Below, piece by piece: positions 8,720 through 24,686 of a DNA stretch of 39,563 bases. The notes under the pieces were generated by a model. That model saw only the letters and a list, made by a program, of their open reading frames with translations. It had not been told where the DNA came from and made no database searches. The stretch comes from a virus. The first letter of the stretch is position 1. Each line of letters begins with the position of its first letter. A program made the translations under genes and the position numbers. The stretch lies in UHGV virus genome UHGV-0170560; one strand, 5' to 3'.

Positions 8720-8731
8720 GTAGTCACCTAT

Positions 8732-8914: not shown

Positions 8915-11389
8915 TTATTGCGGAGTGACATCCTGAGGTCGCCACCAGTATGTCTGATTAAACTCTTTCTTCGAACGTTGCTCCATTTTACGCAAATAGC
9001 CTGGTGAAAAATACTCCTGCATCTGGTTAAAGATCATATGATCGAGAGCCGCCTTTAAGTACCAGAGATTCGCACCTGGCATCAAACCTTTCCCCAGCTT
9101 CACCAGATCACCACCAGTCTGCTCACTCTTCCCTTCCACAGCATTTAACGGTATGCCCTGAGCAATCTTCACTACGTCATCAACCAGACCAGCTACCGGG
9201 CCAAGCATCGACGCCAGCGCGCCGCTTCCGTACCTAGTGTGATCTGACAATAAAAAGTCACCGTAAAGGCCAAGGCCACCACCTTTCAGTAGAGCACCAA
9301 GCCAGAATTTTGCGGCACCTTCTCCTGTCATCTCTCGAGGATTACGACCAGACGCAAGGTCGTTAAGTTGCTGCGACAAAGCGCCAAGAATGGTCGTACT
9401 GGCAATAAACGTCGCAATATATGCCGCACGCCCACCAGCAGACGGCATACTCATAGCGCGTGACCAGTGACGCATAACAACCGAGATAGGGAACGATTTA
9501 AACAGGAAAACACTTCTCGTTAATTCACCTTTCCATGTTCCACGCTGAATACCAGAACCGGTTATCAGTTGCTCACGTGCTCCCGGTGTAATAATAGCCA
9601 TATCAACTTCTTCAGTTACGGCACCGAGCAGTTTACGCATTGCCTCAAATTTCACTCGTTCAGGCTCACCAAGATGTTTAACTGCTGAATCAGGGATACG
9701 CATAATGCTTTCCGGTGTCAGCATCGTATTATTACCGTTCCCCCAGTCCTCCTGTTGCGCCAGCTTCCATACGCTCCAGTCTGTGTCAGTAATCCCTTTG
9801 CTTTTCAGGATACGAAAATCAGAGTCATCGAGGCTACGAAGGTCTGGTGTCCGTGACACTACTTCTCCCAGGCTTCCCATCATGGTTACGCCATAGGCGC
9901 GCTTGTGCGCATCTGACCATGCTGTAAGCCCACTGGCACGCATTACCGCCGTTGCCGCCCAACGAGACACAGACGGCCCCATATTATCCATCGCCCAGCG
10001 GTTAACGCTGCCAAGTAGAGATTCCATCGCCAGGCCAGCGCGGCGCGCCCGCGCAAGCTCAGTACGGTTCGTTGGGTCCATAGCTTCAAGCTGGTTGCGA
10101 AATAACTGGTTCATTGGAAGGTTGGTAACCTTCGCAGACAGATACATGGTTCCAAGATCAGAGAACGATGACAGCAACGCGGATCCGAGTCTGCTGGCAA
10201 CCAGCCAGTTGCGGATATTGTCAGACCATCGCGCGATGTGCGGATTCGCTACAGGCTGTGTTTTTCCGGAAATAAAGTTGTACAGATTCTCTGTGTTGTT
10301 CGCCAGCCGCTCGACTTTACCGGTTTTACTCGGGTTAGCTGTTGCCGTTTCTGCCTTAACCTGATCAAGAAGGGAGCGGAAAACATGATCGGGGTTTGGG
10401 CCATATGTTTCCACCAGCGCAATATCTTTACTGATACCTTCCAGGTGACCGACCATGATTTCCCATAGAGAGCGATCGCCATAAAGTTGCTGATATTGCA
10501 GATAGGAATCTGCATCTTTGAAATGTATCTGTCGTGATGCATTACCACGGTTAGCACGTACGCCGGAAATTCGCATTCCGGTATCAGTAAGCTTATTCAG
10601 CCCACCAGTAGCGATCGTGTTATAAGCCTCTCCAAGAAATGCAGACAACTCGGCATCGTTCATCAGTTGTCCATCGGCTCGGGTATAATATTTGCGATCC
10701 AGCTTACCTATAACATCGCTAACCCATTTATCTTTTGATACCGCCCCAACCTTTTCCATAGAATGATGTTGAGGGATCCCCCAGTTTTCGAGATAGCCAA
10801 TGTCCCCACCAGCATCATTAAACCGGCGGCGCAGTAGATCTGTCACTTCTCTCCACGCCTTAGCACCTTTTCTTGCTTTAGCATTGCCAGTATTTTGCCC
10901 TCGCATTTCATATACCAGGTCACGCACGCCCGCTTCATCTTCAAACAGGCCAAAAAAGCGAGGATCAACTGCTTCAAATGCCTCCTGCAATTGACTCAAT
11001 GCATAATCACGAGTGGCTTTTGTTCTGGATTCAACAGAGAGGAAATTCGATTTACCGTCTGCATTAAAAGCAATAGTACGGTTAAGAGCGCCAAGTTTCC
11101 CATCAGCCCCTTGATAGCTATTGATAAATTTATCCAATCTCTGACGTGCGGCTATAGTGAGGGCCACACGACGTTTCTTTAATGCCGCTTCTCGCTGTAA
11201 TTCTTCAGATGCCAATTGTGCTGCACGATACAACCGTTCTGATTCGGAAAGTTGTCGCCACGACATCGGGTCATCACGAGCAATGGAGCGCATATTTCGA
11301 TAAATGCGGTCTTCAATGTTCTGTATTTCTCGCGCCGTTAACGTGCGCTGCGCCGCCTGCTGGACCGCTTGTATACATTCCTGTCTCAT
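8915..11389 (-). CDS. Internal virion/ejection protein (T7 gp16-like position)
   Basis: 824 aa; translationally coupled within the long minus-strand virion operon. Confidence 0.65.
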   Translation of the reverse strand: MRQECIQAVQQAAQRTLTAREIQNIEDRIYRNMRSIARDDPMSWRQLSESERLYRAAQLASEELQREAALKKRRVALTIAARQRLDKFINSYQGADGKLGALNRTIAFNADGKSNFLSVESRTKATRDYALSQLQEAFEAVDPRFFGLFEDEAGVRDLVYEMRGQNTGNAKARKGAKAWREVTDLLRRRFNDAGGDIGYLENWGIPQHHSMEKVGAVSKDKWVSDVIGKLDRKYYTRADGQLMNDAELSAFLGEAYNTIATGGLNKLTDTGMRISGVRANRGNASRQIHFKDADSYLQYQQLYGDRSLWEIMVGHLEGISKDIALVETYGPNPDHVFRSLLDQVKAETATANPSKTGKVERLANNTENLYNFISGKTQPVANPHIARWSDNIRNWLVASRLGSALLSSFSDLGTMYLSAKVTNLPMNQLFRNQLEAMDPTNRTELARARRAGLAMESLLGSVNRWAMDNMGPSVSRWAATAVMRASGLTAWSDAHKRAYGVTMMGSLGEVVSRTPDLRSLDDSDFRILKSKGITDTDWSVWKLAQQEDWGNGNNTMLTPESIMRIPDSAVKHLGEPERVKFEAMRKLLGAVTEEVDMAIITPGAREQLITGSGIQRGTWKGELTRSVFLFKSFPISVVMRHWSRAMSMPSAGGRAAYIATFIASTTILGALSQQLNDLASGRNPREMTGEGAAKFWLGALLKGGGLGLYGDFLLSDHTRYGSGALASMLGPVAGLVDDVVKIAQGIPLNAVEGKSEQTGGDLVKLGKGLMPGANLWYLKAALDHMIFNQMQEYFSPGYLRKMEQRSKKEFNQTYWWRPQDVTPQ

Positions 11390-11394
11390 TTAAT

Positions 11395-13197
11395 TTAACC
11401 TCTCAAGAAACACGCCACAGCAACATCAAACAGGCTGGAATCCTGTATTGCCTGCTCACTTTCCCTGTTCGCTTCATCCAGTACTTCACGCGCACTGCGC
11501 GATTGTGGATTACCATCATCATCCAGCACGGTGATTATCATGTCCGGAGATTCAAGCAGCGAGTCTTCAGCTATACGCAGATCAATATCTCCTGCCGGAT
11601 CTGCCATCATTTTTTGTTCTGTCTGTTGCAATATCTTACCGGGCTCAAAAGGAGCTACTTCGTCTGGCGTCCTGACCTCTGCTGTTTTATAGAATGAAAC
11701 AGCCTGAGCATTAAGTTCACTTTCTGCCTGCTGTCGCCGTGCCAGTTCTGCTCGAGCTTCAAAAAACTGACCTCCAGGCTCGTGCGGCGCCAACGCGTTA
11801 CGGGAAAATTCCAGGCGTTCTTGTGCCTGCCGGATTCGTTGATCAATATCGCGAAGTCTGGCCTGTTTATCTGATCGAGCACGAGACAAAGCTTTACCGC
11901 TACCGGTTGGCTCTTCTGCAAGAATTTGTGCACGCTGTTCAGTGAGATTGTCGATAATTCGTTGGCTATTAGCGATTTCAGACTGGTAAACCTGTCTATC
12001 GCCACGCGGCAAAAGCTGCGCAGCCTGTTCTTCAAGCAACCGATTTTCGATAGCGCGCGCCGTTACTCCATCATCTACAGATGACAGAGCCTCATTAACT
12101 GCCTGAGACAGCAGATTCTTGCGCCCAGGAATTTCACTGAAAGATGCAGACTCAACAATGCTGGCAACGTCTACAGGTCTCCCCTGGCTAACATCAGACA
12201 TAGCTTTTCGCAGAGCCTGAATGTGAGAATTGCGCGAAAGCACGTTGATCGGCACGCCGGGAGCAATATCAATTTCAGCATGATGAGCGGCATTCGCCGC
12301 CAGTGCAGCATCGATATCAACTGGTGAAAAATTTGGTGCGCTTGTAGACTCGCCGCGAGAGTTAATAAATCTGCCGACACCACCAAACGCCACCCCAAGA
12401 ACAGCATCAATAGCAATTGCCTGTCGATCCAACACATCATACTGGTTAGCCATTTCGCTATAGCCACCATCACGAAGCGTTTTTGCAGTAAGCCCACGCT
12501 GTGCCATACCGAACGCAATATTTGTACCTGCGGCATAGGCAATATCTGGCGTTGCACGTACTGCTGTTGCTGCGGCGCGTCGCACTGAACTCTCACTCGT
12601 CCGCGCAAGCTGAGCCGCCACACCTTCCGCCAGCGCACCACCAGCACGTAACCCGAGGCTCATAGGGATCAGTGTTCCGGCACCAGCAGTAATACCCTGC
12701 ACTAATCCCGCTTCCTGCGCCGTCCTGAAATCAACACCCTGTGCTGTCAGCCGTTCAAACTCAGAAAAACCCTGTAGCGAAGTTACCGCCGCAGCACCTC
12801 CGACCGGACCACCGAGCGTTGTACCGATAACAGCCTGCCCGCCCATATCGAACAACCCATAAAGAACCTGCCCGGCGGTTCCGGTTGTCGCGGCATCAGG
12901 CGTCAGCCGCTTAACCTGCTGCTCTGCTAGTTTTCTCTGCTCGGCAATGTATGAAACTGAAGTGTCATTGAGCGAGGTGTTTTCGTTAACAAACTGAGCA
13001 ATCGGGGATACGATTTTATCCATCCCTGCCCAGAGCAACTGATCAGGCTTTGCCACCAGCCCGGAGTACAAACCAGACAATGCCGCTCCTACAGCATTGT
13101 CGAAAAAACCAACATCGCTGTTAAAGCCCGCTGGATTTGATGCTGCTTCGTCAAGTTGCTGATTCTGGTTTACTGGATTAAGGCCAAAGTAACTCAT
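11395..13197 (-). CDS. Internal virion/ejection protein
   Basis: 600 aa, Ala/Gly-rich N-terminal part and coiled-coil C-terminal part; start abuts upstream stop. Confidence 0.65.
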   Translation of the reverse strand: MSYFGLNPVNQNQQLDEAASNPAGFNSDVGFFDNAVGAALSGLYSGLVAKPDQLLWAGMDKIVSPIAQFVNENTSLNDTSVSYIAEQRKLAEQQVKRLTPDAATTGTAGQVLYGLFDMGGQAVIGTTLGGPVGGAAAVTSLQGFSEFERLTAQGVDFRTAQEAGLVQGITAGAGTLIPMSLGLRAGGALAEGVAAQLARTSESSVRRAAATAVRATPDIAYAAGTNIAFGMAQRGLTAKTLRDGGYSEMANQYDVLDRQAIAIDAVLGVAFGGVGRFINSRGESTSAPNFSPVDIDAALAANAAHHAEIDIAPGVPINVLSRNSHIQALRKAMSDVSQGRPVDVASIVESASFSEIPGRKNLLSQAVNEALSSVDDGVTARAIENRLLEEQAAQLLPRGDRQVYQSEIANSQRIIDNLTEQRAQILAEEPTGSGKALSRARSDKQARLRDIDQRIRQAQERLEFSRNALAPHEPGGQFFEARAELARRQQAESELNAQAVSFYKTAEVRTPDEVAPFEPGKILQQTEQKMMADPAGDIDLRIAEDSLLESPDMIITVLDDDGNPQSRSAREVLDEANRESEQAIQDSSLFDVAVACFLRG

Positions 13198-15707
13198 TGC
13201 GGAATATCTCCGGAGAATCTCTGACGCTTCTGTGTCAGATCAAGAACAACAGGAGAACCATCATCCTTCAGCAGATATCCAGTCCCAAGTTTTACCAAGT
13301 ACTGACTATCGCCGTAACTTTGCAAACCATACTGACCAGGCGGTGTTTTTATCCCTGTGCCGACAACTTGTTCATTCCAAGCCTGATTAACCTGCTTATC
13401 GAATTGCTCTGCAGACATTCCCCACGGCAAAAGAACATTCCCCATTCCGTTATAGTCATGCACGCCACCTGTAGCTACGTTAACAGCCTGTTTCCAGATA
13501 TCATTGTCAATTTCGCCTGATACCACGCCTTTTTTCGCCATCACACCAGCGTAATAGTCCTTTGCGATCTCGTATGCCATTGATGCCCCCTGAGCATCAC
13601 CAGCAAATGCATCCTTCACCATGTCAGAAAACTCAAGGCGAAGATCAGCATCTTTAGGCATCGGAATACCTTTCGCATCATCAGTACCTTTACGAGCCGC
13701 CGCGCCAGCAAGAATTGTCTGCGCAGCGGTTTCAGGTGACACGGAAACATCAGGATTAAACCAGTTTTTTTCTGCCAAAATACCACCAGGTTTATCCATC
13801 AGTATCCCGGCAACGGCAGCAGATGGAGCGTTGGCGCTGATCTGCTGTAGTGCTGACATATACACCTGCCCACCACCAGTGCTCTGCCTGATGGTATCGA
13901 GATATGCTGCCTGTTGGGAAACGGGCGCATCACGAAAGAAAACACCGATCTGATTGGCCTCGTCTTTGGAAAAGAAAGTCAGTGGAGTGCCATATGACTT
14001 GGCAAGGTCACTGACCTGAGCGGCACGCAAGGCAACGCTCTGTCCAAAGTTATCCTTATTGCTCATGTCGATAGGCTTTGCCTGTCCGGCGGCAAGAGAG
14101 AACTGCACAGGATCCGATTGCCGCTGCTTTATCACCTGATTTGCAGCCGAAACAACGTTGTCATAAAGAGCTGCGCGTGCCGCATACCCCTCCCCTGTCT
14201 CACCAGTATCCGGGCGTAATTGCTCAACATATGCTGTAATGCTGCTTGTCGGCATGTTGCGGAAAGAGCCTATATACTGTCCGGCGATCTGCGTATTTCT
14301 GAACTCGGTATATCGCAGGTTTCCTTCTCTGACGCCATAAGCTGCAATAAAATCAGCCTCACCAGGTGGATTAGGAAATTCAACGCCACGCATATACGCA
14401 GCCGTCGCATCGCGAACCTGGCTGTCAATCATCGTTTTATATTCAGCCTGCTGCTGCCGACGCAGTTGATCCGCCTGTCGCATAAAACTTGCCTGCGCCT
14501 CAGGAGAGGCCGCATCGAATGCTGCATTACCGGTATAGCGTTTGGTGTTGGTTGGAATTGTTGATAAACCAAGTGCTGCACTGACACCAGCAGTTAACTG
14601 CTGATCACTGTATGGCTGGCTACCGTTCTCATGATGGATAATGGCTGCACAAAGCGCCTTCAGGGTATCAGGATTTGATGCATCGAGAGGCTCATCAGCA
14701 GAAACGCCAAGTTGTTCGCATACTGCTTTGATATACGACATAGTGTCATTTTTATCAGTAGGCGGTGCCCAGCGATTAATTATCTCGCTGACTGTATCAA
14801 TACCCTGCCGCTGATACGACATCAGGTTCCGCCCTAATGCACGAATCCCGTGTTCAGGTGTTTCGAATTTAGCAAATCGACCATCATCACCGGTCTGGCC
14901 TACCCACGGATTAGTTTTGCTGTATTCGAGATTTCCTGGGTTATTGTTGCGTATGCCACGGGCACGCTCGGAAGAATCACTATCTGCTACAGCACGGCGA
15001 GCTCCAGCAGAAGTATCACTTAACTCGCCATTACTTTGGATGAATGCGGTCGCATTGTTTGCCGACCACTGGGACAATGCGGCATCAGCAACCTTCTCTT
15101 TAAACTCGATTTTCTTGGCCTGGATTTGCTCGTCGCTCCAGCCATGCGCAATGCCGTAATCCTCAATTTGCTGGAAAGTTTGCTTATTAGCCAATACATA
15201 TGCGGCGTTGTCGCCATACAATGCTGCGGCATTTTTACCATTGTTCAGCAGCGTAGCCTGAAACTGGCCTTCTTCGTAGGCATTTATTTGCCCTATCTCG
15301 TGCCGCCCGGCCTGCGTAGTGAACTGAATGCGCTGCTGCTGCGCCTGCTGCATGAAAGCATTACGAGCCTGTTCATCCGGCAGCGACATAGCCAGTTGTT
15401 CGATCTGAGCATCAAACTGCTGCGTATACTCCTGACCTTTTCCAATAGCATTTTTCCCTTTCAGGTTAAGCAATCCTGTTTCAGGATTATTCAGCAGATC
15501 GCTGCTTATCTGACTGAGGTTAAGAGATGCCTCCTGAGCCAGAGCGATATTGGCACGCTGTTTTGCCTGACCAAAAACATCAATTGCCTCTGCCCCTGCC
15601 CGAACAAAAGCATCACCAATACCTGGCTGAGAAAACGCCTGCAAGCCTGCTGACTGAACTCCACGGCTCTCAACCTGACGTCCGGATACTGTTGGTACGA
15701 CTGGCAT
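13194..15707 (-). CDS. Internal virion/ejection protein (T7 gp15-like position)
   Basis: 837 aa from ATG overlapping the upstream stop (TAATG) with GGAGG RBS; the track ORF extends 25 codons further upstream. Confidence 0.65.
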   Translation of the reverse strand: MPVVPTVSGRQVESRGVQSAGLQAFSQPGIGDAFVRAGAEAIDVFGQAKQRANIALAQEASLNLSQISSDLLNNPETGLLNLKGKNAIGKGQEYTQQFDAQIEQLAMSLPDEQARNAFMQQAQQQRIQFTTQAGRHEIGQINAYEEGQFQATLLNNGKNAAALYGDNAAYVLANKQTFQQIEDYGIAHGWSDEQIQAKKIEFKEKVADAALSQWSANNATAFIQSNGELSDTSAGARRAVADSDSSERARGIRNNNPGNLEYSKTNPWVGQTGDDGRFAKFETPEHGIRALGRNLMSYQRQGIDTVSEIINRWAPPTDKNDTMSYIKAVCEQLGVSADEPLDASNPDTLKALCAAIIHHENGSQPYSDQQLTAGVSAALGLSTIPTNTKRYTGNAAFDAASPEAQASFMRQADQLRRQQQAEYKTMIDSQVRDATAAYMRGVEFPNPPGEADFIAAYGVREGNLRYTEFRNTQIAGQYIGSFRNMPTSSITAYVEQLRPDTGETGEGYAARAALYDNVVSAANQVIKQRQSDPVQFSLAAGQAKPIDMSNKDNFGQSVALRAAQVSDLAKSYGTPLTFFSKDEANQIGVFFRDAPVSQQAAYLDTIRQSTGGGQVYMSALQQISANAPSAAVAGILMDKPGGILAEKNWFNPDVSVSPETAAQTILAGAAARKGTDDAKGIPMPKDADLRLEFSDMVKDAFAGDAQGASMAYEIAKDYYAGVMAKKGVVSGEIDNDIWKQAVNVATGGVHDYNGMGNVLLPWGMSAEQFDKQVNQAWNEQVVGTGIKTPPGQYGLQSYGDSQYLVKLGTGYLLKDDGSPVVLDLTQKRQRFSGDIPQ

Positions 15708-16252
15708 TATAATCCTCCGGGTAATCTGGTTCCTGCTGCTGCCCCGATTGGCGCAGGAGTGCTTTGAGTAAACGGACTCCACGTCCCACCAAACATCTGG
15801 TACGCACCGTATGCCTTCAGAGGCGCAGTGAGCAATGTTGTTGCTGCTCCCACATTCCCCTGTTTACGGGCTGAACTGGCTTCTGCTTTATAGTTGGCAG
15901 CCTGAACCTGATAACCGTAAGCCTCGCGTTGCGCGTTATTCACCGTCGTCAGCGAATCAAGAGCGCCAAACTGGGCAGTGTCGCCAAATATATCCAGCGC
16001 GTTACCTGTAGATAAATCAGCGCCGGCAGCCCCCATTGTCGCCGCCTGTGTACCAAGCCGCTGTCGGGTCTCTCTGCGCCGTTGCTCAGCTTCAGCGTTA
16101 CCTCTGTTTATTGCATCATTTGCCTGAGCAGTGGCTATATCTGCGTTCGCTTCTGCAACCTTCGAGGCATACTTTCCCTGTTGGTACTGGGTGTATGCCT
16201 GAATGCCACTCATGGCGAGCATTGCGCCACCAGCAATAACCGGATCGCACAT
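15707..16252 (-). CDS. Internal virion protein (T7 gp14-like position)
   Basis: 181 aa, Ala/Gln-rich; start overlaps upstream stop. Confidence 0.6.
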   Translation of the reverse strand: MCDPVIAGGAMLAMSGIQAYTQYQQGKYASKVAEANADIATAQANDAINRGNAEAEQRRRETRQRLGTQAATMGAAGADLSTGNALDIFGDTAQFGALDSLTTVNNAQREAYGYQVQAANYKAEASSARKQGNVGAATTLLTAPLKAYGAYQMFGGTWSPFTQSTPAPIGAAAGTRLPGGL

Positions 16253-16716: not shown

Positions 16717-19187
16717 CAGAATCCCCCAACAGTAAGGCGAGGAATAACGGCAAGAACAGACAGCGGCAACGGGTCAAGCTGACGGATTTTTACACGTCCG
16801 TTTTTGCCCCAGTTACTGTCCAGTTTCACTTCTACTTTTCCGGTAGCGTCATCAACAGGATCATCATAGAACTCGAATTCACGCTGTGGATATTCGTACC
16901 ATTTACCTCCGGGCGTAGTCGCCCAGATGCCGCGACTGGCATTCACAACCAGAGTAACGGAGGGGATCACCTGTTTTTTGTCCAGCAGCGTTTCCTGTCC
17001 GTTGATGTTGATATCCAGTGTTTCGAATTCAGCAGTTATTGGCAGGCCGATGTGCACTACAGCCCCCGGAGATTCCAGCGTGACGGCACCTCCGGAAACC
17101 ACTTTCTGTGGTTCCACGTTCGCATCAGAGAGAATGTTTACGGTCTGGCCTTCAAGATGAGACAGGCCTCCAAATGTCCGGCGCGCCATCTGCCAGTTCG
17201 TGGTGGCCACATTCCTGAGGGATGGCGGGACGTTCCTGTTAGCACGAACCACTACAGCGGTATTGCTGGTTACAGAAATAATGTCGCAACGTAATTCTTT
17301 TGACACCTCATCGCCAGTATCAGGAGCAGTTCCGGTATAAGGGAACTGTAGTTGCGCGCCGACATCACTACTGGTGAAGTACGCACCACCAGAAACACTG
17401 ATTGTATATTCCGCGCGGTAATCCCATTCGCCAGAACCACCAGTGATGATCATCGTTCTGTCAGACGTATTTCTTCCATCATAGCTAAGTCCAGAATCAA
17501 CAAAGAAAGCATCTTCATCGCCGGTAAATAAACGGCTGGACAGCCGCTCGATGTATCTCACTGTTTGCCCGTTAACGGTTCGGTTAACGACGAAATACAC
17601 CGCATCTTCATTGCCTTCGCTGATACTGCATGTGCTTTCATATTTTCCGGTACTGGATTGTGGTGCCCATGCAAAAACCTGCTGATCACGCAAATAGGTC
17701 ATCACCAGTAATTTACCGTCATCACGAATGCAGAAGGCGCTGGAGTAAGGGACAATAGAGAAGCACCAGTCAACAATGCTGTGCTTCTGAAAAAGATGAT
17801 TGGCAAGGATGGTCAGGTCGTTCCCCTGATAGCCGTCAACATCGAATGAGTAGGCCAGATCACGGACAACACTGCCTTTCTCCTGGACGAACAGAGCAAT
17901 ATTCGCCACGGCAATTGGTGGGACATTGCTCGAGCCATTTGATCCCTGAGAGCTGAATGCAAATGATGATGGGGTTAACACTTTGTTCTGGTCGCCGGTG
18001 ATGACGTACTCACCTCCGGAAGTCAGCGCCACCAGCGAACCAACATCAATCAGGTGGCGGATCTCATTAACCTGACGCCCGGCATAGGTGTAGATAATTC
18101 TGTCGTCATCCTGCGTAGGATTGCTTTTGCCAAAATCCTTATAATCCCCGGTACGGCTGGCCCAGATAGTCTGAGGGAACGCAGTAGATGCGGCGAAGTA
18201 AAGACGTTGTTGATAATAAACAACAGTGCCAGGATAACCGTTAATACTGTTCCAGGCATATTTAGCCCATTTATAGCTGGCATTATCCTCGCCAACTACC
18301 TGCGAAGGGATATAGGAAATCACCTCGGCAGTTGCAGTAGTTCCATTTGCAGCAGAGATACGGGCAATGCCAAAACCACTGTGCAGATACTCCCACTCAA
18401 TGCCGGTATCATCATCACCGGATCCGCCCCAGCCATCCCATGATGTGCCTTCTGTATGCGAAGGGCGCAAAGTACCTGTTTTGCCTGCTGTAACGGCGCG
18501 ATAGTAATTACTGTCTGCACGGCGAATATCGCCAATCGACGTACTCTTACTGGTTTCCCATACCGGTACTGAATCCACTGCTGGCTGTTCCAGATAGAAC
18601 AATTTGCCTACCTGCTCCGCGCCAAAAATAGAGGCGCTTGCCGTTAACGTAATTGTCCCGGTGCTGGCGCTGGCATAAACCGTCACTGACTCGTCAATAT
18701 TGATATCTTCAAATGGCCCGTTCTTCGTTACCACATCAACCAGTTGCCAGTTGTCATGAGCATATCGGCGCAACTCTTTCGGCGGGTATGCCGGGTGAAC
18801 CAGCGTAAGCACGTCGGCGCTTTGCGTGAATTTAATTCGGAACAGATCGGCTTCAGTATATGGCGTGGCAATTTCATAAATAACATTGCTGCTGTTCAGC
18901 ACCAACGCACCATCTTTGATAACGCGCATGTACTGGTGTCCGAACTCCAGAGCATAGGTCTGAACCGTCGAGAACTGGAACGGGATCAGGCGGCATTTCC
19001 GATTTGGGTATTTGGCGGCACCGACAAAACGCGTACCAGGTCGATTCTCAACGCCGCCATACTGCCGCACGATAAAATTATCGCACTTGCGCAATGCCAC
19101 CTGGTACTTCGCCATGTCGATACGCCCGTACAACGACGGTCCAATCTCACCACCGGCAAAGCTGGGCTGGATCCAACTGATAGCCAT
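16716..19187 (-). CDS. Tail tubular protein B-like (nozzle)
   Basis: 823 aa; size and position after the gp11-like gene match the T7-type tail module. Confidence 0.6.
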   Translation of the reverse strand: MAISWIQPSFAGGEIGPSLYGRIDMAKYQVALRKCDNFIVRQYGGVENRPGTRFVGAAKYPNRKCRLIPFQFSTVQTYALEFGHQYMRVIKDGALVLNSSNVIYEIATPYTEADLFRIKFTQSADVLTLVHPAYPPKELRRYAHDNWQLVDVVTKNGPFEDINIDESVTVYASASTGTITLTASASIFGAEQVGKLFYLEQPAVDSVPVWETSKSTSIGDIRRADSNYYRAVTAGKTGTLRPSHTEGTSWDGWGGSGDDDTGIEWEYLHSGFGIARISAANGTTATAEVISYIPSQVVGEDNASYKWAKYAWNSINGYPGTVVYYQQRLYFAASTAFPQTIWASRTGDYKDFGKSNPTQDDDRIIYTYAGRQVNEIRHLIDVGSLVALTSGGEYVITGDQNKVLTPSSFAFSSQGSNGSSNVPPIAVANIALFVQEKGSVVRDLAYSFDVDGYQGNDLTILANHLFQKHSIVDWCFSIVPYSSAFCIRDDGKLLVMTYLRDQQVFAWAPQSSTGKYESTCSISEGNEDAVYFVVNRTVNGQTVRYIERLSSRLFTGDEDAFFVDSGLSYDGRNTSDRTMIITGGSGEWDYRAEYTISVSGGAYFTSSDVGAQLQFPYTGTAPDTGDEVSKELRCDIISVTSNTAVVVRANRNVPPSLRNVATTNWQMARRTFGGLSHLEGQTVNILSDANVEPQKVVSGGAVTLESPGAVVHIGLPITAEFETLDININGQETLLDKKQVIPSVTLVVNASRGIWATTPGGKWYEYPQREFEFYDDPVDDATGKVEVKLDSNWGKNGRVKIRQLDPLPLSVLAVIPRLTVGGF

Positions 19188-19792
19188 CAGGACAACCTCG
19201 CAATGGTAAACTCATCAACCGGTGGCTGTGGTTCCTGTGATTCATTCTGGCTATGCGAGCCAGCACTAAGAATCACGCGATTGTACATATTGAGGGCAAA
19301 CGTACCGAGGTCTGCATTCCCAGTCAGCGCCATGTTAATAGCTGCCGCAAGACGCCAGGCCAACGCCTCCATAAAAATGGCATCAAACATGTTCACATCT
19401 GAAACGCGAGAGACATACTTGAGCCATGCCTGCGGCTGGTCTGTGTAGATCAACTTTCCTGTTCCGTTGGTGTCTGCACCAACTTCGTACTGAACGCGCA
19501 TTGCTGCTGTTGGATTGCGTACACCAGGAAGCATAATTTCAGTAATGCGCAGACAATCGGACGGGTACTGATACGCATATTCCCAGTCAGGCGGTGGATT
19601 GCTCGTATCTGCAAGCGCCACGCGTTTGGTAGCAAAGTTCCAGTCAAAATCAGAAAGCACAGCATCACGGCAGGCCTCAAAGTGCAGCGAACATTCCCCC
19701 GCTTCCTTGCTGGCTTCCGTCAGGCTGTTAATGCTGCGGCTATTGCCAATATTGGACAGCGCACGATTGCAGATCTCTACTACAGAGGCCAT
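19187..19792 (-). CDS. Tail tubular protein A-like (adaptor)
   Basis: 201 aa; weak recalled resemblance to T7 gp11 at N- and C-termini; synteny. Confidence 0.55.
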   Translation of the reverse strand: MASVVEICNRALSNIGNSRSINSLTEASKEAGECSLHFEACRDAVLSDFDWNFATKRVALADTSNPPPDWEYAYQYPSDCLRITEIMLPGVRNPTAAMRVQYEVGADTNGTGKLIYTDQPQAWLKYVSRVSDVNMFDAIFMEALAWRLAAAINMALTGNADLGTFALNMYNRVILSAGSHSQNESQEPQPPVDEFTIARLS

Positions 19793-20121
19793 TACTCACC
19801 CCCATTGCCGTACAGGGTTTCAGCCGCTGATTTTTCTACATCCCCGGAAACAGGAGCGATCGCCATATCAGTGATCTGCAGATCGGCGCTGCGATTAACA
19901 CCATCGTCAGTTTCTCTGGCAGACAGGCCTCGAATAACAGCTTTTGCAGTTATCATCACTTCTGTTCCGACGCCCTGAGGTTGCGCCTTCAGCTTATTCA
20001 ATGTGTCGTTATTAAGAGTGATGCACAGCCCCCACGGGTATTCATCGCGAGTTCTGGTTTCTCCGCTCTCATCCTGGTAGCTGTCAGTGCCGGTTTTGAG
20101 GTTTACGAGTTCCATATACAC
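19792..20121 (-). CDS. Hypothetical virion-associated protein
   Basis: 109-aa ORF in the head-tail gene block. Confidence 0.5.
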   Translation of the reverse strand: MYMELVNLKTGTDSYQDESGETRTRDEYPWGLCITLNNDTLNKLKAQPQGVGTEVMITAKAVIRGLSARETDDGVNRSADLQITDMAIAPVSGDVEKSAAETLYGNGGE

Positions 20122-20127
20122 TCCTGC

Positions 20128-20148
20128 AATAAAGGGGCCGAAGCCCCT
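20128..20148 (-). terminator. Rho-independent terminator inside the late gene cluster
   Basis: Minus-strand stem GGGGC/GCCCC with loop TTCG followed by TTTATT. Confidence 0.55.
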
Positions 20149-20165
20149 TGTCGGATTCGCGAGGC

Positions 20166-20510
20166 TTACACGCCTAGTTCTTTACGCTTATCTGCGATCT
20201 TCTCGCGGAGCGTTTCGGCTTTAGCGTTATGGTGTGGCTTCTCGTTAAAGAGCAATTCGTACTCTTCACGGAGCTTATCCAGTTCACCATCATCTGACAC
20301 ATCGTTGATGATTTTGGTGCTGGTTGCTGCCATTGACACCTTTCCTGCAACTTTTGCTTTTGCCTGTCTGGCTGCATCGTTAACAGGTTCCAGTGCGCTA
20401 CCAGGCTCACCTTCGTATTCGATTTCTGCCCCCTCCGGCCACAGAGTGTTATGGATATGAGAGAGGCGCAGAACGCGGTATCTTGGTTTCTCACCTGACA
20501 TCGATATCAC
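20166..20510 (-). CDS. Hypothetical head protein
   Basis: 114-aa ORF directly after the 145-aa gene. Confidence 0.5.
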   Translation of the reverse strand: MISMSGEKPRYRVLRLSHIHNTLWPEGAEIEYEGEPGSALEPVNDAARQAKAKVAGKVSMAATSTKIINDVSDDGELDKLREEYELLFNEKPHHNAKAETLREKIADKRKELGV

Positions 20511-20511
20511 C

Positions 20512-20949
20512 TTAACCAGTTACTTTTGAGCGGATCGGATACGGCGTATTGGCATCAACATCAAGACTGATACCAGCAGTGAATTCGCCAGCCGTTAGTG
20601 GGCCAGTTGCGACGGAGTAGTTAACACGCAGATATCGCTGAACACCGGCAGGCACCTTTGCAGAAACAACTCGTTTACCTGCTGTCAGGGTGGTCTTTGC
20701 CAGTGCACCACTATCATAAATAGTGGTCCATGAGCTGTTATCCTCACTCGTCTGCAACTGGATGTTTACAGTTGCATTACCGCTTGCTGCGGCGGCTGTG
20801 TTAACCAGCGCCCAAAACTCAAGCGGGTAACCCACGCCGATATCACGACGTTTTCCGTCAATTGGACCGAGATCGATTACGTCAGTAGAAGCCGCGGTAT
20901 CAGTTACCGCCTGTGCTTCGGAGAACATCAACAGTTTGTCGGTGATCAT
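20512..20949 (-). CDS. Putative capsid decoration/minor capsid protein
   Basis: 145 aa, Thr/Ala/Gly-rich beta-type composition, immediately after the major capsid gene. Confidence 0.45.
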   Translation of the reverse strand: MITDKLLMFSEAQAVTDTAASTDVIDLGPIDGKRRDIGVGYPLEFWALVNTAAAASGNATVNIQLQTSEDNSSWTTIYDSGALAKTTLTAGKRVVSAKVPAGVQRYLRVNYSVATGPLTAGEFTAGISLDVDANTPYPIRSKVTG

Positions 20950-21000
20950 CTTCTTTCTCCATTAGTGGGTCTGTTACGACCCACAGGTTAATAACAGGCG

Positions 21001-21993
21001 TTACACCACGCGGGCTTCTGTTTCCAGAAGCGTATCAGTTTCACGGATTGGTACACCACGGAATGACGTCCACCACTCGCCTTCAGTCTCTTTTACGCTG
21101 ATCGCCAGAGATGTTTTCTCCAGAGACTGCAAATCAAGAGCCTGGCCTACAGTGCGGTTCATGTAGAACACCGGGCGCCCCATGCCACGGTTCGGAATGC
21201 GATGCAGTGCTTTAACCATCAACTTCGCAATATTTGCGGTAGAGGAAGGTTCTGAAAGATTGCTGACATCGATGTTTGCAATGCGAACAACATAACGCCA
21301 GTCACGCAGAGCAAGTCCGTTGTCCCATTTGTAATGGGTTCGGTAGCCTTCGTACTTGCCACCATTAGCATCTTCCAGTGTCACCTGGCCTTTATCTTCC
21401 ATCTGGATGCCAGCCTTCTGCCCTTTCGGGAAGATGCCATGCACGGTGTTTTCGCCCCACACCACTAACCAGATTGAGGTGTTATCTGTACCCGTGCCAC
21501 CAGCATCAATGATGTTCTGAGCATTACCTGCAGACAGGCTGGAATAGCGGGAGGACAGTCCCATAAACTGCTGAGGGTTAACGCTGGAATCACCATAAAA
21601 CAGCGTCTGCGCCATCTGCTGATTCATCGCTTCAATAAATGCGCGGTCTTCAGACAGGCGGAATTCGGCGGTATTGCCGTTCAGATCAGCCAGTGACTTA
21701 TCGACTTCAGCATAGGTTTCCAGCATGCCAACGGAATCGGTTACCTGCACTGTGGTTGATTTGCTTGGCTGTACGCCATAGTTCAGCAAACGCCAAGTAG
21801 CTGAAGGTAAACCAGAACGAATGGTGGTTCGGTGTCCGGTAGGAAGGTTCCCTTCGACAAAAGGCATATCCTGAAGGATCGGGTTAGTTTGACCGAGAAG
21901 CTCGATAATCTTATCGACTTTCCCGTTTGGATCGACGCGCTTACCCCAGTCAGCCAGCGTTAGCGCAGTTAAGCCTTTAACAGCCATTGTCAT
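21001..21993 (-). CDS. Major capsid protein
   Basis: 330 aa; position directly after the scaffold-like gene; size and composition typical of an HK97-fold coat protein. Confidence 0.7.
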   Translation of the reverse strand: MTMAVKGLTALTLADWGKRVDPNGKVDKIIELLGQTNPILQDMPFVEGNLPTGHRTTIRSGLPSATWRLLNYGVQPSKSTTVQVTDSVGMLETYAEVDKSLADLNGNTAEFRLSEDRAFIEAMNQQMAQTLFYGDSSVNPQQFMGLSSRYSSLSAGNAQNIIDAGGTGTDNTSIWLVVWGENTVHGIFPKGQKAGIQMEDKGQVTLEDANGGKYEGYRTHYKWDNGLALRDWRYVVRIANIDVSNLSEPSSTANIAKLMVKALHRIPNRGMGRPVFYMNRTVGQALDLQSLEKTSLAISVKETEGEWWTSFRGVPIRETDTLLETEARVV

Positions 21994-22001
21994 TTCCTCT
22001 C

Positions 22002-22703
22002 TTATTTGCCATAGAGCACTTCGGCCGCACTACGCTGGCCTTCATTACCACCGGTGACCATGCCATCTTCAGACATCGCCTTTCCGATTTTCACGAACGT
22101 TTTAACCAGATCAGGGTGATTACCCAGCCCGGTGGTGTTCAGATATTCTTTGAGTTCAGGTGTCCCGAACTGGTCAAGCGCACGCTGTGCGGCGCTAAGG
22201 TTAGAAATCAACTTGTCGCCACCGATTTCTTTGTCAGCTTTTACATCAGCAGCCCACTGCTCGGTCGTTTTCTGCCAGGCTTCTGCCTGACGCTGCTGCA
22301 CACCTGCCAGAATCTTCGGATAAGCATCAACCAGCTTTTGCGCTTGCTCGTTGGTCAGGTTAAGGTCTCGCGCCACCGGCTCGAATTCCTTCAACGCTTC
22401 TGTATCCAGCTCTACGCCTTCGGCAGCCTGAAACTCGTACTTCTCAGGCGCACCATCTGGTTTATCGCCGTCCTTTTTTTCATCCTGCTTATCGTTTTCA
22501 GACTTTTTGTCATCAGTAGGTTTATCGCCATCAGCAACAGGTTGTGGCTTATCACCTTCCTGTTGTGATGGCTCACCAACTGGAGCAGGGTTATCACCTG
22601 CAGGCGCTGACGATTCTGACGCAGCCGGAGCTGCTCCACCATCGACTGGTTGCTCATTGCAAAGACGGCGATACAGCAAACGCTCAAATAAATTCATGAT
22701 CAC
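22002..22703 (-). CDS. Scaffolding protein
   Basis: 233 aa, acidic low-complexity Pro/Asp/Lys-rich middle and helical C-terminus, between portal and capsid. Confidence 0.65.
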   Translation of the reverse strand: MIMNLFERLLYRRLCNEQPVDGGAAPAASESSAPAGDNPAPVGEPSQQEGDKPQPVADGDKPTDDKKSENDKQDEKKDGDKPDGAPEKYEFQAAEGVELDTEALKEFEPVARDLNLTNEQAQKLVDAYPKILAGVQQRQAEAWQKTTEQWAADVKADKEIGGDKLISNLSAAQRALDQFGTPELKEYLNTTGLGNHPDLVKTFVKIGKAMSEDGMVTGGNEGQRSAAEVLYGK

Positions 22704-22996
22704 TCCTGTTCACTGGCCTCTTTGGCCATCTTCAAATACTGTTCAGGGCAATGCGCCATAACGCGCTGAAACAGTTCCAGCGCCAGATTGCGTTGCCCCT
22801 CATTAAATGCCATTGCCATAGCGTCCATCGGCGAGATAGCGGAAAACACACGGCCTTTCTCCAGCACCGACCAGACAACGCGACGCCCCTGTTCACTGCT
22901 CATGACAAAGCGAATGTCATCAATTTCACGCTGCGCCATGTCACGTTGCTTACGGGCGTTTTCTTCTTTCAGATGATCGTCTTCGTAATCTGTCAT
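22700..22996 (-). CDS. Hypothetical protein between portal and scaffold
   Basis: 98-aa ORF, overlap coupling at both ends. Confidence 0.5.
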   Translation of the reverse strand: MTDYEDDHLKEENARKQRDMAQREIDDIRFVMSSEQGRRVVWSVLEKGRVFSAISPMDAMAMAFNEGQRNLALELFQRVMAHCPEQYLKMAKEASEQE

Positions 22997-24672
22997 TGTG
23001 ATTGCCCACCCTGGCCACTAACTGCATTCGCCATAGCTGACAAAACACTCGGATCCGAAGTTTTAGCTTCGCTAAGCGTCTTGGCACCCTGTGCCGCCGC
23101 CATCCCCATCGCCATCATTTGTTGCTGCTGTTGCTGCTGTGCCCGTTGCTGGCGAGCCTGCTCAACCTGTTCCTGCGGAACAATGACGGTTGGAGACACT
23201 CCGGACATATCAGCGAATGCATCGATCGCCTGATCAACGTTGAGTTTGTCGAGAGCTTCTGGTTTCGCTTGCGCAAGTTGACCAATGAAGTTGACCGTGG
23301 ACGCCAGACTGGACAAGCCGATAGACTTCTGCGCCTGAGCCATGACGGAAATGTATTCGACCTTCAGGGGCATACCTTCCATCACGTCTGGCGGTGGCGG
23401 CAGCATGTTTTTACGCACCATCATCGAGAAAGCGCGGTCAATGAGAGGATTAAGACATTCGTCGTTCAGACGCTCCAGAACCGGCCCCAACATCAGAAGT
23501 TTTTCTTCTTTCATTTCGATCACCGCTTCAACAGGCATCGAGCGGGTATTGATGTTCTGCAACATCATGAACAGATCGACAAAGTAGGCGCTGTTAATGA
23601 TTTGACGAGTGTCCTGAATGTCTGCCACCAAATCTGCTGTACTGGGGTTAACCAGATAAGCAGGCCTGAAACCATCCTGACCAGTAATCTGATCGATATA
23701 CGTGATGTCGCCAGGAAGAAGGGAGGCACGCTGATTCTTGAGGGAAGTCGGAGCAACCATCGGCGGATTGGTGGCTTTATCAATCAACTGCGACTTGCGC
23801 TTCTGGAGAAGCTGCAATGCCTTAACAGGTCCAAGCGCCAGCATACCCGGGCATGATGATCCATAAACATCTTCGCCGTTAACTTCCCAGCGCGGAGCCA
23901 TAATTGGAAACTCATCGAATCCGGACTCACGCAACAACTTGTCGTTATCGCCGCCAACCTCGTAATAAACCGATTTGAATGGCTTGTTCTTGCTATCCAG
24001 CTTCGATGTATCGCGGTCAATGTTCGGGTAAACCGAATGCATCACTTCAATCCACTTCTCGTAGGTGCCGCTTTCCCACATGCTTTTTACGGATTCGCTG
24101 ACGTTATTTAGCCCGAACTCCTGAACAAGCTGACGAACAGTCATAGAGAACTTGCGAAAACAGGTGTCCACACTGCCACGAGGTGAGTTAGCCAGGTAGT
24201 AACTGCCTATCGGGAATGGCATTGTGCGAATGATGTCCTCGTCATCCTCCAGCACTGCCATTGCACCAGTGCTGTATGTGCCGAGGCTTCCGTATAACTG
24301 CGGCAGCGACTGATAGAGATTCGACTTATTGAACATATCGTTCATGCGGTTCTGCACCGCCTCAAGCCACAACTTAACAGGGCCATAATCCATCATTTCA
24401 GGATCTGGCGTAGCCAGGCGAAACCACGGACGCGCGGGGCTTGTGATGCCTGACATCATGCCGCTGGCGAGAGTGCGCGCCGCCATAGTCCCGGTCGAAT
24501 CAATAATGCGTGTATTGCGCCGATCGTTACGGTTGACCTCAGAAGTCAGAAAGCGGGAACCACGCGGGTTGATGTAATCACTCAACTCGCGCCAGTGCGG
24601 CTCGAACGACTGACGCTCGCTTTCAAGTTGTGCGAACTGTTTGTTCAATCGCTCTTTAGTTGTTTCCGCCAT
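22993..24672 (-). CDS. Portal protein (T7 gp8-like)
   Basis: 559 aa; C-terminal Q-rich/MAMGMAAAQG region resembles the T7 gp8 C-terminus by recollection; lies after the terminase region. Confidence 0.8.
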   Translation of the reverse strand: MAETTKERLNKQFAQLESERQSFEPHWRELSDYINPRGSRFLTSEVNRNDRRNTRIIDSTGTMAARTLASGMMSGITSPARPWFRLATPDPEMMDYGPVKLWLEAVQNRMNDMFNKSNLYQSLPQLYGSLGTYSTGAMAVLEDDEDIIRTMPFPIGSYYLANSPRGSVDTCFRKFSMTVRQLVQEFGLNNVSESVKSMWESGTYEKWIEVMHSVYPNIDRDTSKLDSKNKPFKSVYYEVGGDNDKLLRESGFDEFPIMAPRWEVNGEDVYGSSCPGMLALGPVKALQLLQKRKSQLIDKATNPPMVAPTSLKNQRASLLPGDITYIDQITGQDGFRPAYLVNPSTADLVADIQDTRQIINSAYFVDLFMMLQNINTRSMPVEAVIEMKEEKLLMLGPVLERLNDECLNPLIDRAFSMMVRKNMLPPPPDVMEGMPLKVEYISVMAQAQKSIGLSSLASTVNFIGQLAQAKPEALDKLNVDQAIDAFADMSGVSPTVIVPQEQVEQARQQRAQQQQQQQMMAMGMAAAQGAKTLSEAKTSDPSVLSAMANAVSGQGGQSQ

Positions 24673-24686
24673 TTCAATGACTCCGG

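Follow-up and report, generated by a model that had tools for sequence, protein, structure and literature searches.

Temperate short-tailed phages of the phiV10 type (genus Uetakevirus, to which epsilon15 also belongs) are common in E. coli and already described. The phiV10-type lineage has been described since 2006–2007 and was analysed by Hardies et al. 2016 (PMC4819975), who reported the same homologies and named an 'epsilon15 subgroup' of T7-related tails, so that the T7-tail kinship of epsilon15-type phages is not new. The ejection operon of epsilon15 is syntenic and its core stack is T7-like (Swanson and Cingolani 2022). Uetakevirus phages have been reported to integrate at the guaA 3' end (PMC9782041).

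The window analysed here was the whole 39,563-nt stretch of virus genome UHGV-0170560. Its segment 8915–24672 was identified, with a probability of roughly 0.94, as the late structural (virion) operon of a Uetakevirus prophage of the phiV10 type integrated in E. coli, whose genes for tail and ejection share an ancient homology with those of T7. The sequence-only reading, a T7-supergroup-like virion module in a temperate lambdoid backbone, was therefore correct in outline.

Genomic setting and operon layout

When the 15.8-kb module was compared with temperate podovirus genomes, as had been proposed, it was matched over its full length (100% of the region covered) by vB_EcoP_ZX5, phiv142-3, and phiV10 (NC_007804) at 97.9–98.3% nucleotide identity. 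The module was collinear gene by gene with phiV10p07–p21, the terminase-to-tailspike gene order was identical in all three phages, and the whole window, including the early region, was collinear with long-known phages of the phiV10 type. They also share the same early set, composed of lambda P, a DnaT-type initiator, a two-HTH repressor, RecET, and a methylase. However, only 61–75% of the non-structural part was covered: the tailspike body of the window differed and had no oac (O-acetyltransferase) gene beside it, and the antirepressor/DUF4760 island and some early genes also differed, as a mosaic outside the module.

The prophage adjoins the E. coli core genes yfgH/yfgI: positions 30–1400 matched these genes in 5422 of the 5426 E. 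coli genomes, and phage homology begins at about position 1276. The position beside yfgI fits the guaA 3'-end integration reported for ZX5 (PMC9782041); the integrase end falls outside the window. The adaptor–nozzle segment was found in 537 of 5426 complete E. coli genomes (~10%).

The early region contained a lambda P homologue, a DnaT/HTH_36 initiator, an HTH repressor, RecE-like protein, and RecT. The proposed lambdoid backbone thus held for the temperate character, lambda P, and the repressor, but not for lambda O, whose place is taken by the DnaT/HTH_36 protein. Every ORF of at least 250 aa in the window was assigned and none of these matched an RNA polymerase family, in agreement with the claim that no phage RNA polymerase is present.

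The ends of segment 8915–24672 coincide exactly with the stop of the 824-aa gene and the start of the portal gene, and the minus-strand order and sizes given for its genes were found for all ORFs. The small terminase gene (27640–28314, minus strand; phiV10p01; Pfam PF03592 Terminase_2, E 1.4e-29) opens the late operon upstream of this segment, and the large terminase gene lies at 26168–27643 on the same strand (phiV10p02; phrog_2 terminase large subunit, E 4e-52). The virion block is tightly packed, yet most junctions are not of the ATGA type. Nearly all had been described as ATGA-type overlaps, which did not hold, as only 3 of the 13 were ATGA (two) or GTGA (one); five were 1-nt TAATG/TGATG overlaps and five were gaps of 1–51 nt. 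Stop and start overlapped at 8 of 13 junctions. The GTGA junction hinges on the choice of start, and phiV10 annotates a later ATG that leaves a 2-nt gap instead.

At the operon end, two small membrane-protein ORFs (8423–8905, minus strand) of 57 aa (8732–8905) and 98 aa (8423–8719) were recognized from the ORF list by their hydrophobic sequences, where phiV10p21, an 'integral membrane protein', sits. An intrinsic-terminator-like hairpin (8397–8414, minus strand; AGGCCGCTTTCGCGGCCT then TGTTTTT), with seven pairs of which six are GC, is a predicted strong terminator closing the late operon block. No promoter-like excess was seen within the virion block. From the type of phage, host RNA polymerase would be expected to read the minus strand, starting with the terminase genes and stopping at the terminator near 8400, and a phage polymerase would be unnecessary for the late operon.

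Head and tail genes

All genes in this section lie on the minus strand. The portal (559 aa, 22993–24672) belongs to the T7 gp8 family, as had been claimed: both it and T7 gp8 matched Pfam PF12236 Head-tail_con (E 1.3e-187 and 2.8e-113, respectively), and the two gave reciprocal matches to phrog_332 and phrog_449. The portal also matched the Carin-1 portal (PDB 8ck0_A, 1.5e-177). It is followed by a 98-aa Bbp19-like protein (22700–22996; Pfam PF25181, E 2.8e-17) and an acidic 233-aa protein (22002–22703; phrog_458 'protease') in the scaffold position. The acidic protein is probably the scaffolding protein, by analogy with relatives. Despite its database label, it matched none of the Pfam or NCBIfam protease models. 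The capsid protein solved for epsilon15 aligned starting at its residue 1, and therefore no prodomain removal is evident.

The major capsid protein (330 aa, 21001–21993) was assigned by Pfam PF20911 GP7 (E 4.8e-149) to the epsilon15 gp7/BPP-1 type with a predicted HK97 fold, and matched 3j4u_A (major capsid protein, 6.7e-126) and 3j40_A (epsilon15 gp7, 1.3e-83) in the PDB. T7 gp10A belongs to PF21703 (Gp10A-like). Between capsid and adaptor are a Bbp16-like cement/decoration protein (145 aa, 20512–20949; Pfam PF21190, E 1.4e-46), which matched the 'cementing protein' 3j4u_H and the 'capsid decoration protein' 8cjz_B; a 114-aa epsilon15 gp9-like protein (20166–20510; phrog_590 only; phiV10p12); and an epsilon15 gp10-like capsid 'staple' protein (109 aa, 19792–20121; Pfam PF21628, E 1.2e-51; PDB 3j40_N gp10, 2.4e-19). 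T7 has no counterpart of the 145-, 114-, 109-, and 98-aa genes, all of which had been left out of the earlier description. Neither the scaffold candidate nor the capsid and decoration proteins showed homology to T7 gp9 or gp10. The scaffold candidate and capsid follow the T7 pattern in order and size, and neither matched a T7 family.

The tail adaptor/gatekeeper (201 aa, 19187–19792) had no sequence-level match to T7 gp11. Its AF2 model (pLDDT 85.9) confirmed a gp11-type ('tail tubular protein A') adaptor fold as predicted, with Foldseek matches to the Carin-1 connector (E 1.8e-16, TM 0.84, 32% identity), T7 gp11 (7box_M, E 3.7e-6, TM 0.59–0.60), and KP32 tail tubular protein A. The tail nozzle (823 aa, 16716–19187) was assigned as a homologue of T7 gp12, 'tail tubular protein B'. 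Its family profile aligned collinearly with T7 gp12 over 384 columns (hhalign, E 1.7e-5) and matched cyanophage A4 tail tubular protein B in the PDB (1.4e-8), and the protein matched the Carin-1 nozzle at 1.3e-215 and 45% identity. The nozzle model was weak (pLDDT 65.7), and its seven top Foldseek matches were without exception tail-complex chains of podoviruses; one of them, from T7, scored 5.8e-9 with a TM of only 0.19–0.20. These results support the tail tubular-like identity suggested earlier for the proteins of about 200 and 820 aa. The adaptor, nozzle, gp13-like protein, and tailspike of this window did not reach the Pfam T7-family thresholds; a nozzle homologue (P0412, ~50% identical) passed Pfam PF25675 Phage_nozzle.

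Ejection proteins and tailspike

The proteins described as about 150, 180, 840, 600, and 820 aa were found, on the minus strand, as 154, 181, 837, 600, and 824 aa. The 154-aa protein (16252–16716) is an internal virion protein A homologue, a T7 gp13-like assembly factor; it was assigned to phrog_308 (E 2.3e-62), as was T7 gp13 (1.1e-42), and its match to Pfam PF11090 was below threshold (E 0.092). The 181-aa internal virion/ejection protein B (15707–16252) belongs to the T7 gp14 family, with a match to Pfam PF24072 T7_gp14 (E 1.4e-7, 32 bits; cut-off 27 bits) that T7 gp14 itself shares.

The 837-aa ejection protein (13194–15707), the counterpart of T7 gp15 by gene position, contains an internal peptidoglycan-hydrolase domain (residues ~249–398) that matched PDB 9vvp_L Gp29 (3.1e-37) and the endolysin 7q47 (1.2e-16) at concatenated positions 1608–1757, as well as endolysin and tail injection transglycosylase families in PHROG. 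The mechanical ORF is 862 aa from an upstream GTG, but ATG 15707 is taken as the true start because it overlaps the preceding stop and agrees with the phiV10 annotation. The 600-aa virion protein (11395–13197), at the epsilon15 gp16 position, matched only phrog_1145 and gave no match in Pfam, NCBIfam, or PDB searches; it is presumed to be the second ejection protein. Epsilon15 gp15 and gp16 are presumptive IVP-C, and gp17 is IVP-D (Hardies et al. 2016, PMC4819975).

For the 824-aa ejection protein (8915–11389; phrog_684 virion structural protein), tblastn identified relatives annotated 'internal virion protein' in VP5, Liberibacter SC1/SC2, and Pelagibacter podophages. The protein is probably homologous to the C-terminal part of T7 gp16 (IVP-D), on the basis of a weak hhalign match between the two families (E 3.9e-4, probability 36%, 138 columns) and a common QFKSF motif. 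A PDB profile search found nothing for this link.

The tailspike (861 aa, 3316–5901, minus strand) has an N-terminal particle-binding domain of ~165 aa related to the T7 gp17 N-terminus. Both proteins matched phrog_1640, phrog_27277, and phrog_15695, and the tailspike matched Pfam PF03906 below threshold (E 1.3e-4, 22.1 bits; cut-off 25.2 bits). Matches to PF12708 and PF13884 indicated a pectate-lyase-like beta-helix and a C-terminal S74 chaperone domain. The fibre had been placed directly after the ejection genes; instead, the tailspike lies outside the block, separated from it by a 3-kb stretch of mainly opposite-strand genes. Between it and the 824-aa gene are the two small membrane ORFs, the terminator (8414–8397), and plus-strand genes, namely a Bro-N/Ant antirepressor (6655–7380) and a DUF4760 gene (7597–8136).

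By analogy with epsilon15 and T7, these products would assemble into an HK97-fold head (T=7) of epsilon15/BPP-1 type, built on a portal of the T7 gp8 type. The 233-aa protein would probably act as scaffold in head assembly, and the cement and staple proteins would strengthen the head. The 181-, 837-, 600-, and 824-aa proteins may form the internal core, loaded with the help of the 154-aa gp13-like factor. After packaging, the gp11-type adaptor ring and gp12-type nozzle would close the portal and hold six tailspikes through the gp17-like N-terminal domain. The infection steps are reported in the literature to have been shown for epsilon15 by cryo-tomography. Here, the tailspikes would bind and cut O-antigen, the nozzle would then open, and the core proteins would leave the head to form a temporary channel across the envelope, with the muralytic domain of the 837-aa protein cutting peptidoglycan.

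Relation to known systems and alternative readings

When the window was compared with epsilon15 (Salmonella phage, type species of the group; cryo-EM 3J40 and others), the architecture and the gene order gp4–gp17 and gp20 were the same. The likeness extends to the capsid gp7 and staple gp10 families and, as predicted from the genes, to the core stack and the six tailspikes. However, DNA similarity was detected only over positions ~14182–19803, and the window carries a different allele of the 600- and 824-aa genes and of the distal half of the 837-aa gene; the 824-aa protein was 28% identical to its VB_ST_E15 homologue and 94% identical to that of SPN1S. The closest solved structures are from Carin-1 (Cobetia marina phage; PDB 8CJZ, 8CK0, and 8CK1), for the portal, nozzle, adaptor, capsid, and decoration proteins, and from Legionella phage LME-1 (PDB 9EFK), for the nozzle and adaptor. 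These phages have other hosts and genomes and resemble the window at the protein level only, and they offer no solved counterpart to the 600- and 824-aa proteins.

The T7-like gene 8–17 order and the lambda-type early genes would also be expected if a T7-type (Autographiviridae) virion module had recently moved into a lambdoid temperate phage and created a new chimeric type. This hybrid is highly improbable and effectively refuted, since BLASTP detected no significant pairwise similarity to any T7 protein, which indicates an ancient relationship rather than a recent graft, and since the window is collinear with phiV10-type phages. The capsid, scaffold candidate, and terminases outside T7 families, the presence of the module in ~10% of E. 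coli genomes, and the long record of the lineage (PMC4819975) also argue against it.

A P22-type module (gp1 portal, gp4, gp10, gp26 needle, and gp7/gp20/gp16 ejection proteins), the type carried by most temperate enterobacterial podoviruses, is very unlikely as well. P22 falls in the same broad tail homology group with a syntenic ejection operon (Hardies et al. 2016, PMC4819975; Swanson and Cingolani 2022), and one review clusters epsilon15 gp14-like and gp16-like proteins nearer P22. However, the portal is of the PF12236 family, the nozzle resembles T7-type nozzles, no tail-needle gene is present, the proteins of capsid and decoration belong to the epsilon15/BPP-1 type, and the adaptor model (E <= 0.001) matched adaptors of T7-like, Carin-1, LME-1, and other podophages with no P22 entry among the matches listed. 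More improbable still is a siphovirus or myovirus tail module misread from gene sizes. Large ORFs are present and one PHROG match is named 'tail length tape measure protein', but that match is confined to the muralytic domain; no tail tube, tape measure, sheath, or baseplate family was matched, the adaptor (Foldseek) and nozzle (hhalign) were confirmed, and ZX5 and phiV10, to which the window is closely related, are podoviruses.

In the phiV10-type prophage, the T7-supergroup likeness applies to one half of the module, so that the sequence-only interpretation was supported in part. The tail/ejection half is distantly related to T7 genes 8, 11, 12, 13, and 14, weakly to 16, and to the 5' end region of 17, with their order kept. 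No such likeness to T7 holds for the head half (capsid shell of PF20911, scaffold candidate without a gp9 match, and decoration), for the terminase genes, or for the temperate early region. T7 shares the order of portal, adaptor, nozzle, assembly factor, and small then large ejection proteins, the portal and gp14 Pfam families, and a fibre with a related N-terminal domain. Unlike T7, the phage is temperate, and the window lacks an RNA polymerase and T7 promoters and adds cement and staple proteins. It encodes three large ejection proteins (837, 600, and 824 aa) where T7 has two (747 and 1318 aa), and its muralytic domain is non-SLT and lies inside the first of them instead of at the N-terminus of the last. 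Furthermore, the fibre gene is detached, and the portal has the terminase genes upstream of it, whereas in T7 they come after the fibre. The large terminase subunit, P1 PacB-like in the phiV10 annotation, is positioned unlike T7 gp19.

A Uetakevirus prophage and its virion block

The minus-strand block of virion genes at 8915–24672 aligned over 100% of its length with the Escherichia phages vB_EcoP_ZX5, phiv142-3, and phiV10 at 97.9–98.3% identity, whereas Enterobacter phage Tyrion (82% identity) and the epsilon15-group phages of Salmonella were less similar to this region. Positions 1–25000 of the window matched Uetakevirus phages at 97% identity over 78–83%, and positions 24673–39563 at 96% identity over 61–75%; outside the virion block, the matches to the same phages were broken by mosaic gaps. 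By ICTV convention, the genus level corresponds to about 70% or more nucleotide identity across the genome. On this genome-wide measure, the element is assigned from its sequence to the genus Uetakevirus, the epsilon15/phiV10-like temperate podoviruses. The gene order of the genus (terminases, portal, capsid gp7, staple gp10, gp11–gp17, tailspike, lysis genes, and integrase side) was present up to the window end, and the RefSeq annotation of phiV10, a member of the genus, was collinear gene for gene from the terminase to the recombination genes.

The left window end (30–1400) consisted of E. coli chromosome with the core genes yfgH (110–628) and yfgI (644–1183), matched in 5422 of 5426 complete genomes. 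The junction between prophage and host was located near 1276, where homology to phiV10 started, and the other junction and the integrase lie past 39563. These host genes, together with phage homology from about 1276, indicate that the window is an integrated prophage. Both genes are neighbours of guaA. The position of the prophage fits integration at the 3' end of guaA, as reported for Uetakevirus (PMC9782041). The segment of the adaptor and nozzle genes was found in 537 of the 5426 complete E. coli genomes with 95–99% identity, and the exact cluster of the nozzle protein held thousands of member sequences; the phage type is very common and already named.

The virion block was composed of 14 closely packed ORFs on the minus strand, encoding in order a portal of 559 aa, proteins of 98 and 233 aa, a capsid protein of 330 aa, proteins of 145, 114, and 109 aa, the adaptor (201 aa), the nozzle (823 aa), and proteins of 154, 181, 837, 600, and 824 aa. 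The protein sizes and gene order claimed in the sequence-only reading agreed with this map. Its description of nearly all junctions as ATGA-type was not borne out: only three of the 13 were 4-base ATGA/GTGA overlaps, five were 1-base TAATG/TGATG overlaps, and five were gaps of 1–51 bases. Nor did the fibre directly follow the block, as the tailspike gene (3316–5901) was separated from it by small ORFs, a hairpin, and a plus-strand island. Two small membrane ORFs (8732–8905 and 8423–8719) came next after the 824-aa gene, and a strong terminator-like hairpin was located at 8414–8397. The region 5902–8400, between the ejection genes and the tailspike, formed an island of opposite strand. It contained a Bro-N/Ant antirepressor (6655–7380) and a DUF4760 protein (7597–8136) whose N-terminal segment was hydrophobic, both on the plus strand, as well as a 91-aa ORF (6079–6354). 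PADLOC matched no defence model to the ORFs of this island, and none among the 10 accessory ORFs scanned.

A GC-rich hairpin on the minus strand at 20122–20165, with the sequence GGGGCTTCGGCCCC and then TTTATT, fell midway through the late operon, in the spacer that separates the 114-aa gene from the gene of the staple protein. A simple scan missed this hairpin, which may act as a partial terminator or affect RNA stability. The longest ORF of the 837-aa gene (13194–15782, 862 aa) had a GTG start and ran 76 bases into the upstream gene. With the ATG at 15707 as start, the protein was 837 aa long and the junction at the previous stop codon was of the TAATG type; the phiV10 annotation uses this start as well, and it is likely the true one for this muralytic ejection protein gene.

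Tail and ejection proteins compared with T7

The T7 late region was taken for comparison, and the protein sets of T7 and of the window were scanned against identical libraries. The portal and T7 gp8 fell into the same Pfam family, PF12236 (E 1.3e-187 and 2.8e-113, respectively), and each matched the PHROG family of the other, in agreement with the gp8-like portal that had been proposed. In pairwise BLASTP of the portal, adaptor, nozzle, 154-aa protein, and tailspike against T7 gp8, gp11, gp12, gp13, and gp17, nothing was significant. NCBIfam gave no useful match among 10 virion proteins.

The adaptor gave no signal against T7 gp11 by sequence or sequence profile. Its AlphaFold model was of good confidence (pLDDT 85.9) and matched T7 gp11 in Foldseek with an E-value of 3.7e-6, a probability of 1.0, and a TM-score of 0.59–0.60. 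The model also matched the Carin-1 connector (TM 0.84), the LME-1 adaptor, KP32 tail tubular protein A, and chains of about 12 further podovirus tail structures; 26 of the 30 best matches were chains of podovirus tail, neck, or adaptor structures. The protein of about 200 aa, whose gene comes right before the nozzle gene, is thus predicted to have the gp11 (tubular tail A) fold, as the sequence-only reading had supposed.

The nozzle (16716–19187) shared 45% identity with the solved Carin-1 nozzle. Among PDB chains, a profile of 49 nozzle sequences matched the cyanophage A4 'tail tubular protein B' as well as another chain named 'nozzle', and it aligned collinearly with T7 gp12 in hhalign over 384 columns with an E-value of 1.7e-5. 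AlphaFold modelled the nozzle poorly (pLDDT 65.7, pTM 0.39), so that the Foldseek ranking and E-values of this model are usable and its TM-scores are not. The top seven Foldseek matches were exclusively podovirus tail-complex chains, including the T7 chain 7ey7_s (E 5.8e-9), which we take to be gp12. By profile, the claimed tail tubular-like protein of about 820 aa after the adaptor is a homologue of gp12 (tubular tail B). The initial homologue sets consisted of Enterobacterales prophage copies only, 54–99% identical to the query and too similar for use, and such shallow alignments of close relatives (A1 and A2) gave no match to single T7 sequences in hhalign.

An exhaustive representative search yielded 18,273 clusters related to the nozzle, and the Pfam nozzle model is at the edge of its coverage for this family. 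The homologue P0412, about 50% identical to the nozzle, matched PF25675 (Phage_nozzle) in its central domain with 35.6 bits against a cut-off of 27 bits. It was the only one of five homologues of about 50% identity with precomputed PF25675.2 matches that passed with the local PF25675.1; the other four gave no match, and neither did the nozzle of the window itself. Many of the homologues P0393–P0413, about 50% identical to the nozzle, carried a precomputed PF25675.2 match.

The genes for homologues of the internal virion proteins IVP-A (gp13) and IVP-B (gp14) directly followed the nozzle gene. The 154-aa protein shared the PHROG phrog_308 with T7 gp13, and the 181-aa protein was above the threshold for Pfam PF24072 (T7_gp14), which upholds the T7 order proposed for these proteins of about 150 and 180 aa. 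Relatives of the 824-aa protein in Pelagibacter, Vibrio VP5, and Liberibacter phages are named 'internal virion protein'. In hhalign, the 824-aa family aligned with the C-terminal third of the gp16 family over 138 columns, centred on a common QFKSF motif, with an E-value of 3.9e-4 and a probability of only 36%; the 824-aa family profile gave no real match to PDB sequences. This alignment weakly suggests that the 824-aa protein is a homologue of the C-terminal region of T7 gp16 (IVP-D). The muralytic domain inside the 837-aa protein had relatives in an endolysin and at the N-terminus of the 1295-aa Gp29 (PDB code 9vvp). With the 837- and 600-aa proteins as queries, T7 gp15 did not appear among the matches in Pfam, PHROGs, or PDB sequences, and the 600- and 824-aa proteins have no homologue of solved structure.

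Residues 1–166 of the tailspike matched three PHROG families in common with the N-terminus of T7 gp17. Its sole Pfam match of this kind, PF03906 (Phage_T7_tail), was below the cut-off (22.1 against 25.2 bits), and BLASTP against T7 gp17 gave only a short motif (E 0.09). The body was pectate-lyase-like, with an S74 intramolecular chaperone domain at the C-terminus. In phiV10, the O-antigen acetyltransferase gene oac lies beside the tailspike gene, whereas in the region 2796–5901 of the window no such gene adjoins the tailspike gene, which is only 160 bp from the next gene. This prophage probably differs from phiV10 in O-antigen specificity and in its mechanism of superinfection immunity.

Head, terminase, and early region

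Apart from the portal, the head proteins matched no T7 family. The capsid protein belonged to PF20911, the epsilon15 gp7/BPP-1 family (PDB codes 3j40 and 3j4u), and the T7 capsid protein to PF21703. The window encoded a cement protein of the Bbp16 type and a staple protein of the epsilon15 gp10 type, whereas T7 has neither. The terminase genes were located upstream of the portal, unlike in T7. The acidic 233-aa protein at the scaffold position (22002–22703) matched neither PF05396 nor the T7 gp9 scaffold. In PHROGs and several GenBank records it is named 'protease', 'peptidase', or 'endoprotease'; no protease family model matched it, and its N-terminal half was acidic and proline-rich. We infer that this protein is the scaffold, and the 'protease' name looks like a propagated mis-annotation.

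The window contained no T7-type RNA polymerase, with no family match and every ORF of suitable size assigned, as had been read from the sequence; the collinear genome of phiV10 likewise lacks one. The features of Autographiviridae (T7 proper), an RNA polymerase together with a PF21703 capsid and a PF05396 scaffold, were absent. The temperate backbone was corroborated by integration in the chromosome and by a two-HTH repressor (35222–35806) of the HTH_3 family, in keeping with the CI/Cro-type immunity region of lambdoid phages. Of the lambdoid O/P replication genes assigned to it, P had a counterpart in a lambda P homologue (PF06992, E 1.4e-56); the initiator was a protein with HTH_36 and DnaT domains that gave no match to a lambda O family. 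Also found in the early region were genes for RecE-like and RecT proteins, for AlpA, and for a methylase, along with Ea22, DUF551, and DUF1064 genes.

Descent of the module and its ejection proteins

The sequence-only reading of a T7-like module in a temperate backbone was largely correct: its tail and ejection half and the polymerase-less backbone held, and its head half was overstated. A recent chimera of T7 and a lambdoid phage was rejected, as no pairwise BLASTP similarity to any T7 protein was found. A virion module of P22 type and one of a long-tailed phage were also considered and rejected. The kinship with T7 goes back to an ancient common ancestor of the tail and ejection ensemble and is not due to a recent module graft.

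This picture is not new. Hardies et al. 2016 (PMC4819975) reported a strong HMM–HMM match of epsilon15 gp12 to T7 gp12 (E < 1e-10) and, through intermediate profiles, identified epsilon15 gp17 as the IVP-D homologue. An IVP-C homologue was not confirmed there, and epsilon15 gp15 and gp16 were presumed to be IVP-C by position only. The same authors named an 'epsilon15 subgroup' within the T7-related tail group ('transient tail structural homology group'), and read the grouping of epsilon15 terminase and capsid proteins with siphovirus proteins as interfamily horizontal transfer. A review (PMC8954989) places epsilon15 among phages with a syntenic gp14/15/16-like operon and a T7-like core stack. 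The independent tests made here reproduce the 2016 picture, its weak spots included.

The T7-related virion module of Uetakevirus is already known, the genus having sequenced, imaged, and partly solved members, and its T7 kinship, in print since 2016, carries little weight as a discovery. The value lies in annotation: most genes of the module are still 'hypothetical protein' in E. coli genomes, about one-tenth of the complete genomes carry it, and the adaptor, nozzle, and gp13/gp14-like labels can be transferred with confidence.

The following working steps are drawn from relatives, the present contribution being the sequence assignments. Host RNA polymerase would transcribe the late operon as a single long transcript ending at the 8414–8397 terminator. 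The portal, scaffold, and capsid would form the procapsid, whose internal core would consist of the 181-, 837-, 600-, and 824-aa proteins and be loaded with the aid of the gp13-like factor, and the terminase would package the DNA. The adaptor and nozzle would close the portal and hold six tailspikes. On O-antigen binding, the nozzle would open and the core proteins would leave to form a temporary envelope channel, the cell wall being cut by the muralytic domain.

DNA similarity to epsilon15 was detectable only at about 14182–19803 of the window and ended inside the 837-aa gene near 14180. The 824-aa protein was 94% identical to that of SPN1S and 28% identical to that of the epsilon15-type phage VB_ST_E15. 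From the distal half of the 837-aa gene through the 600- and 824-aa genes, the window carried the allele of SPN1S and phiV10, which differs from that of epsilon15. These identities, together with the stop in DNA similarity, suggest an exchange of ejection-protein genes within Uetakevirus. It is a tentative and rather doubtful further proposal that this phiV10/SPN1S-type set is an allele swapped at the breakpoint in the 837-aa gene that builds its channel unlike T7 gp15/gp16, from three large proteins with a mid-protein non-SLT muralytic domain. If this were true, the swapped allele would provide a tractable natural case of ejectosome module swapping.
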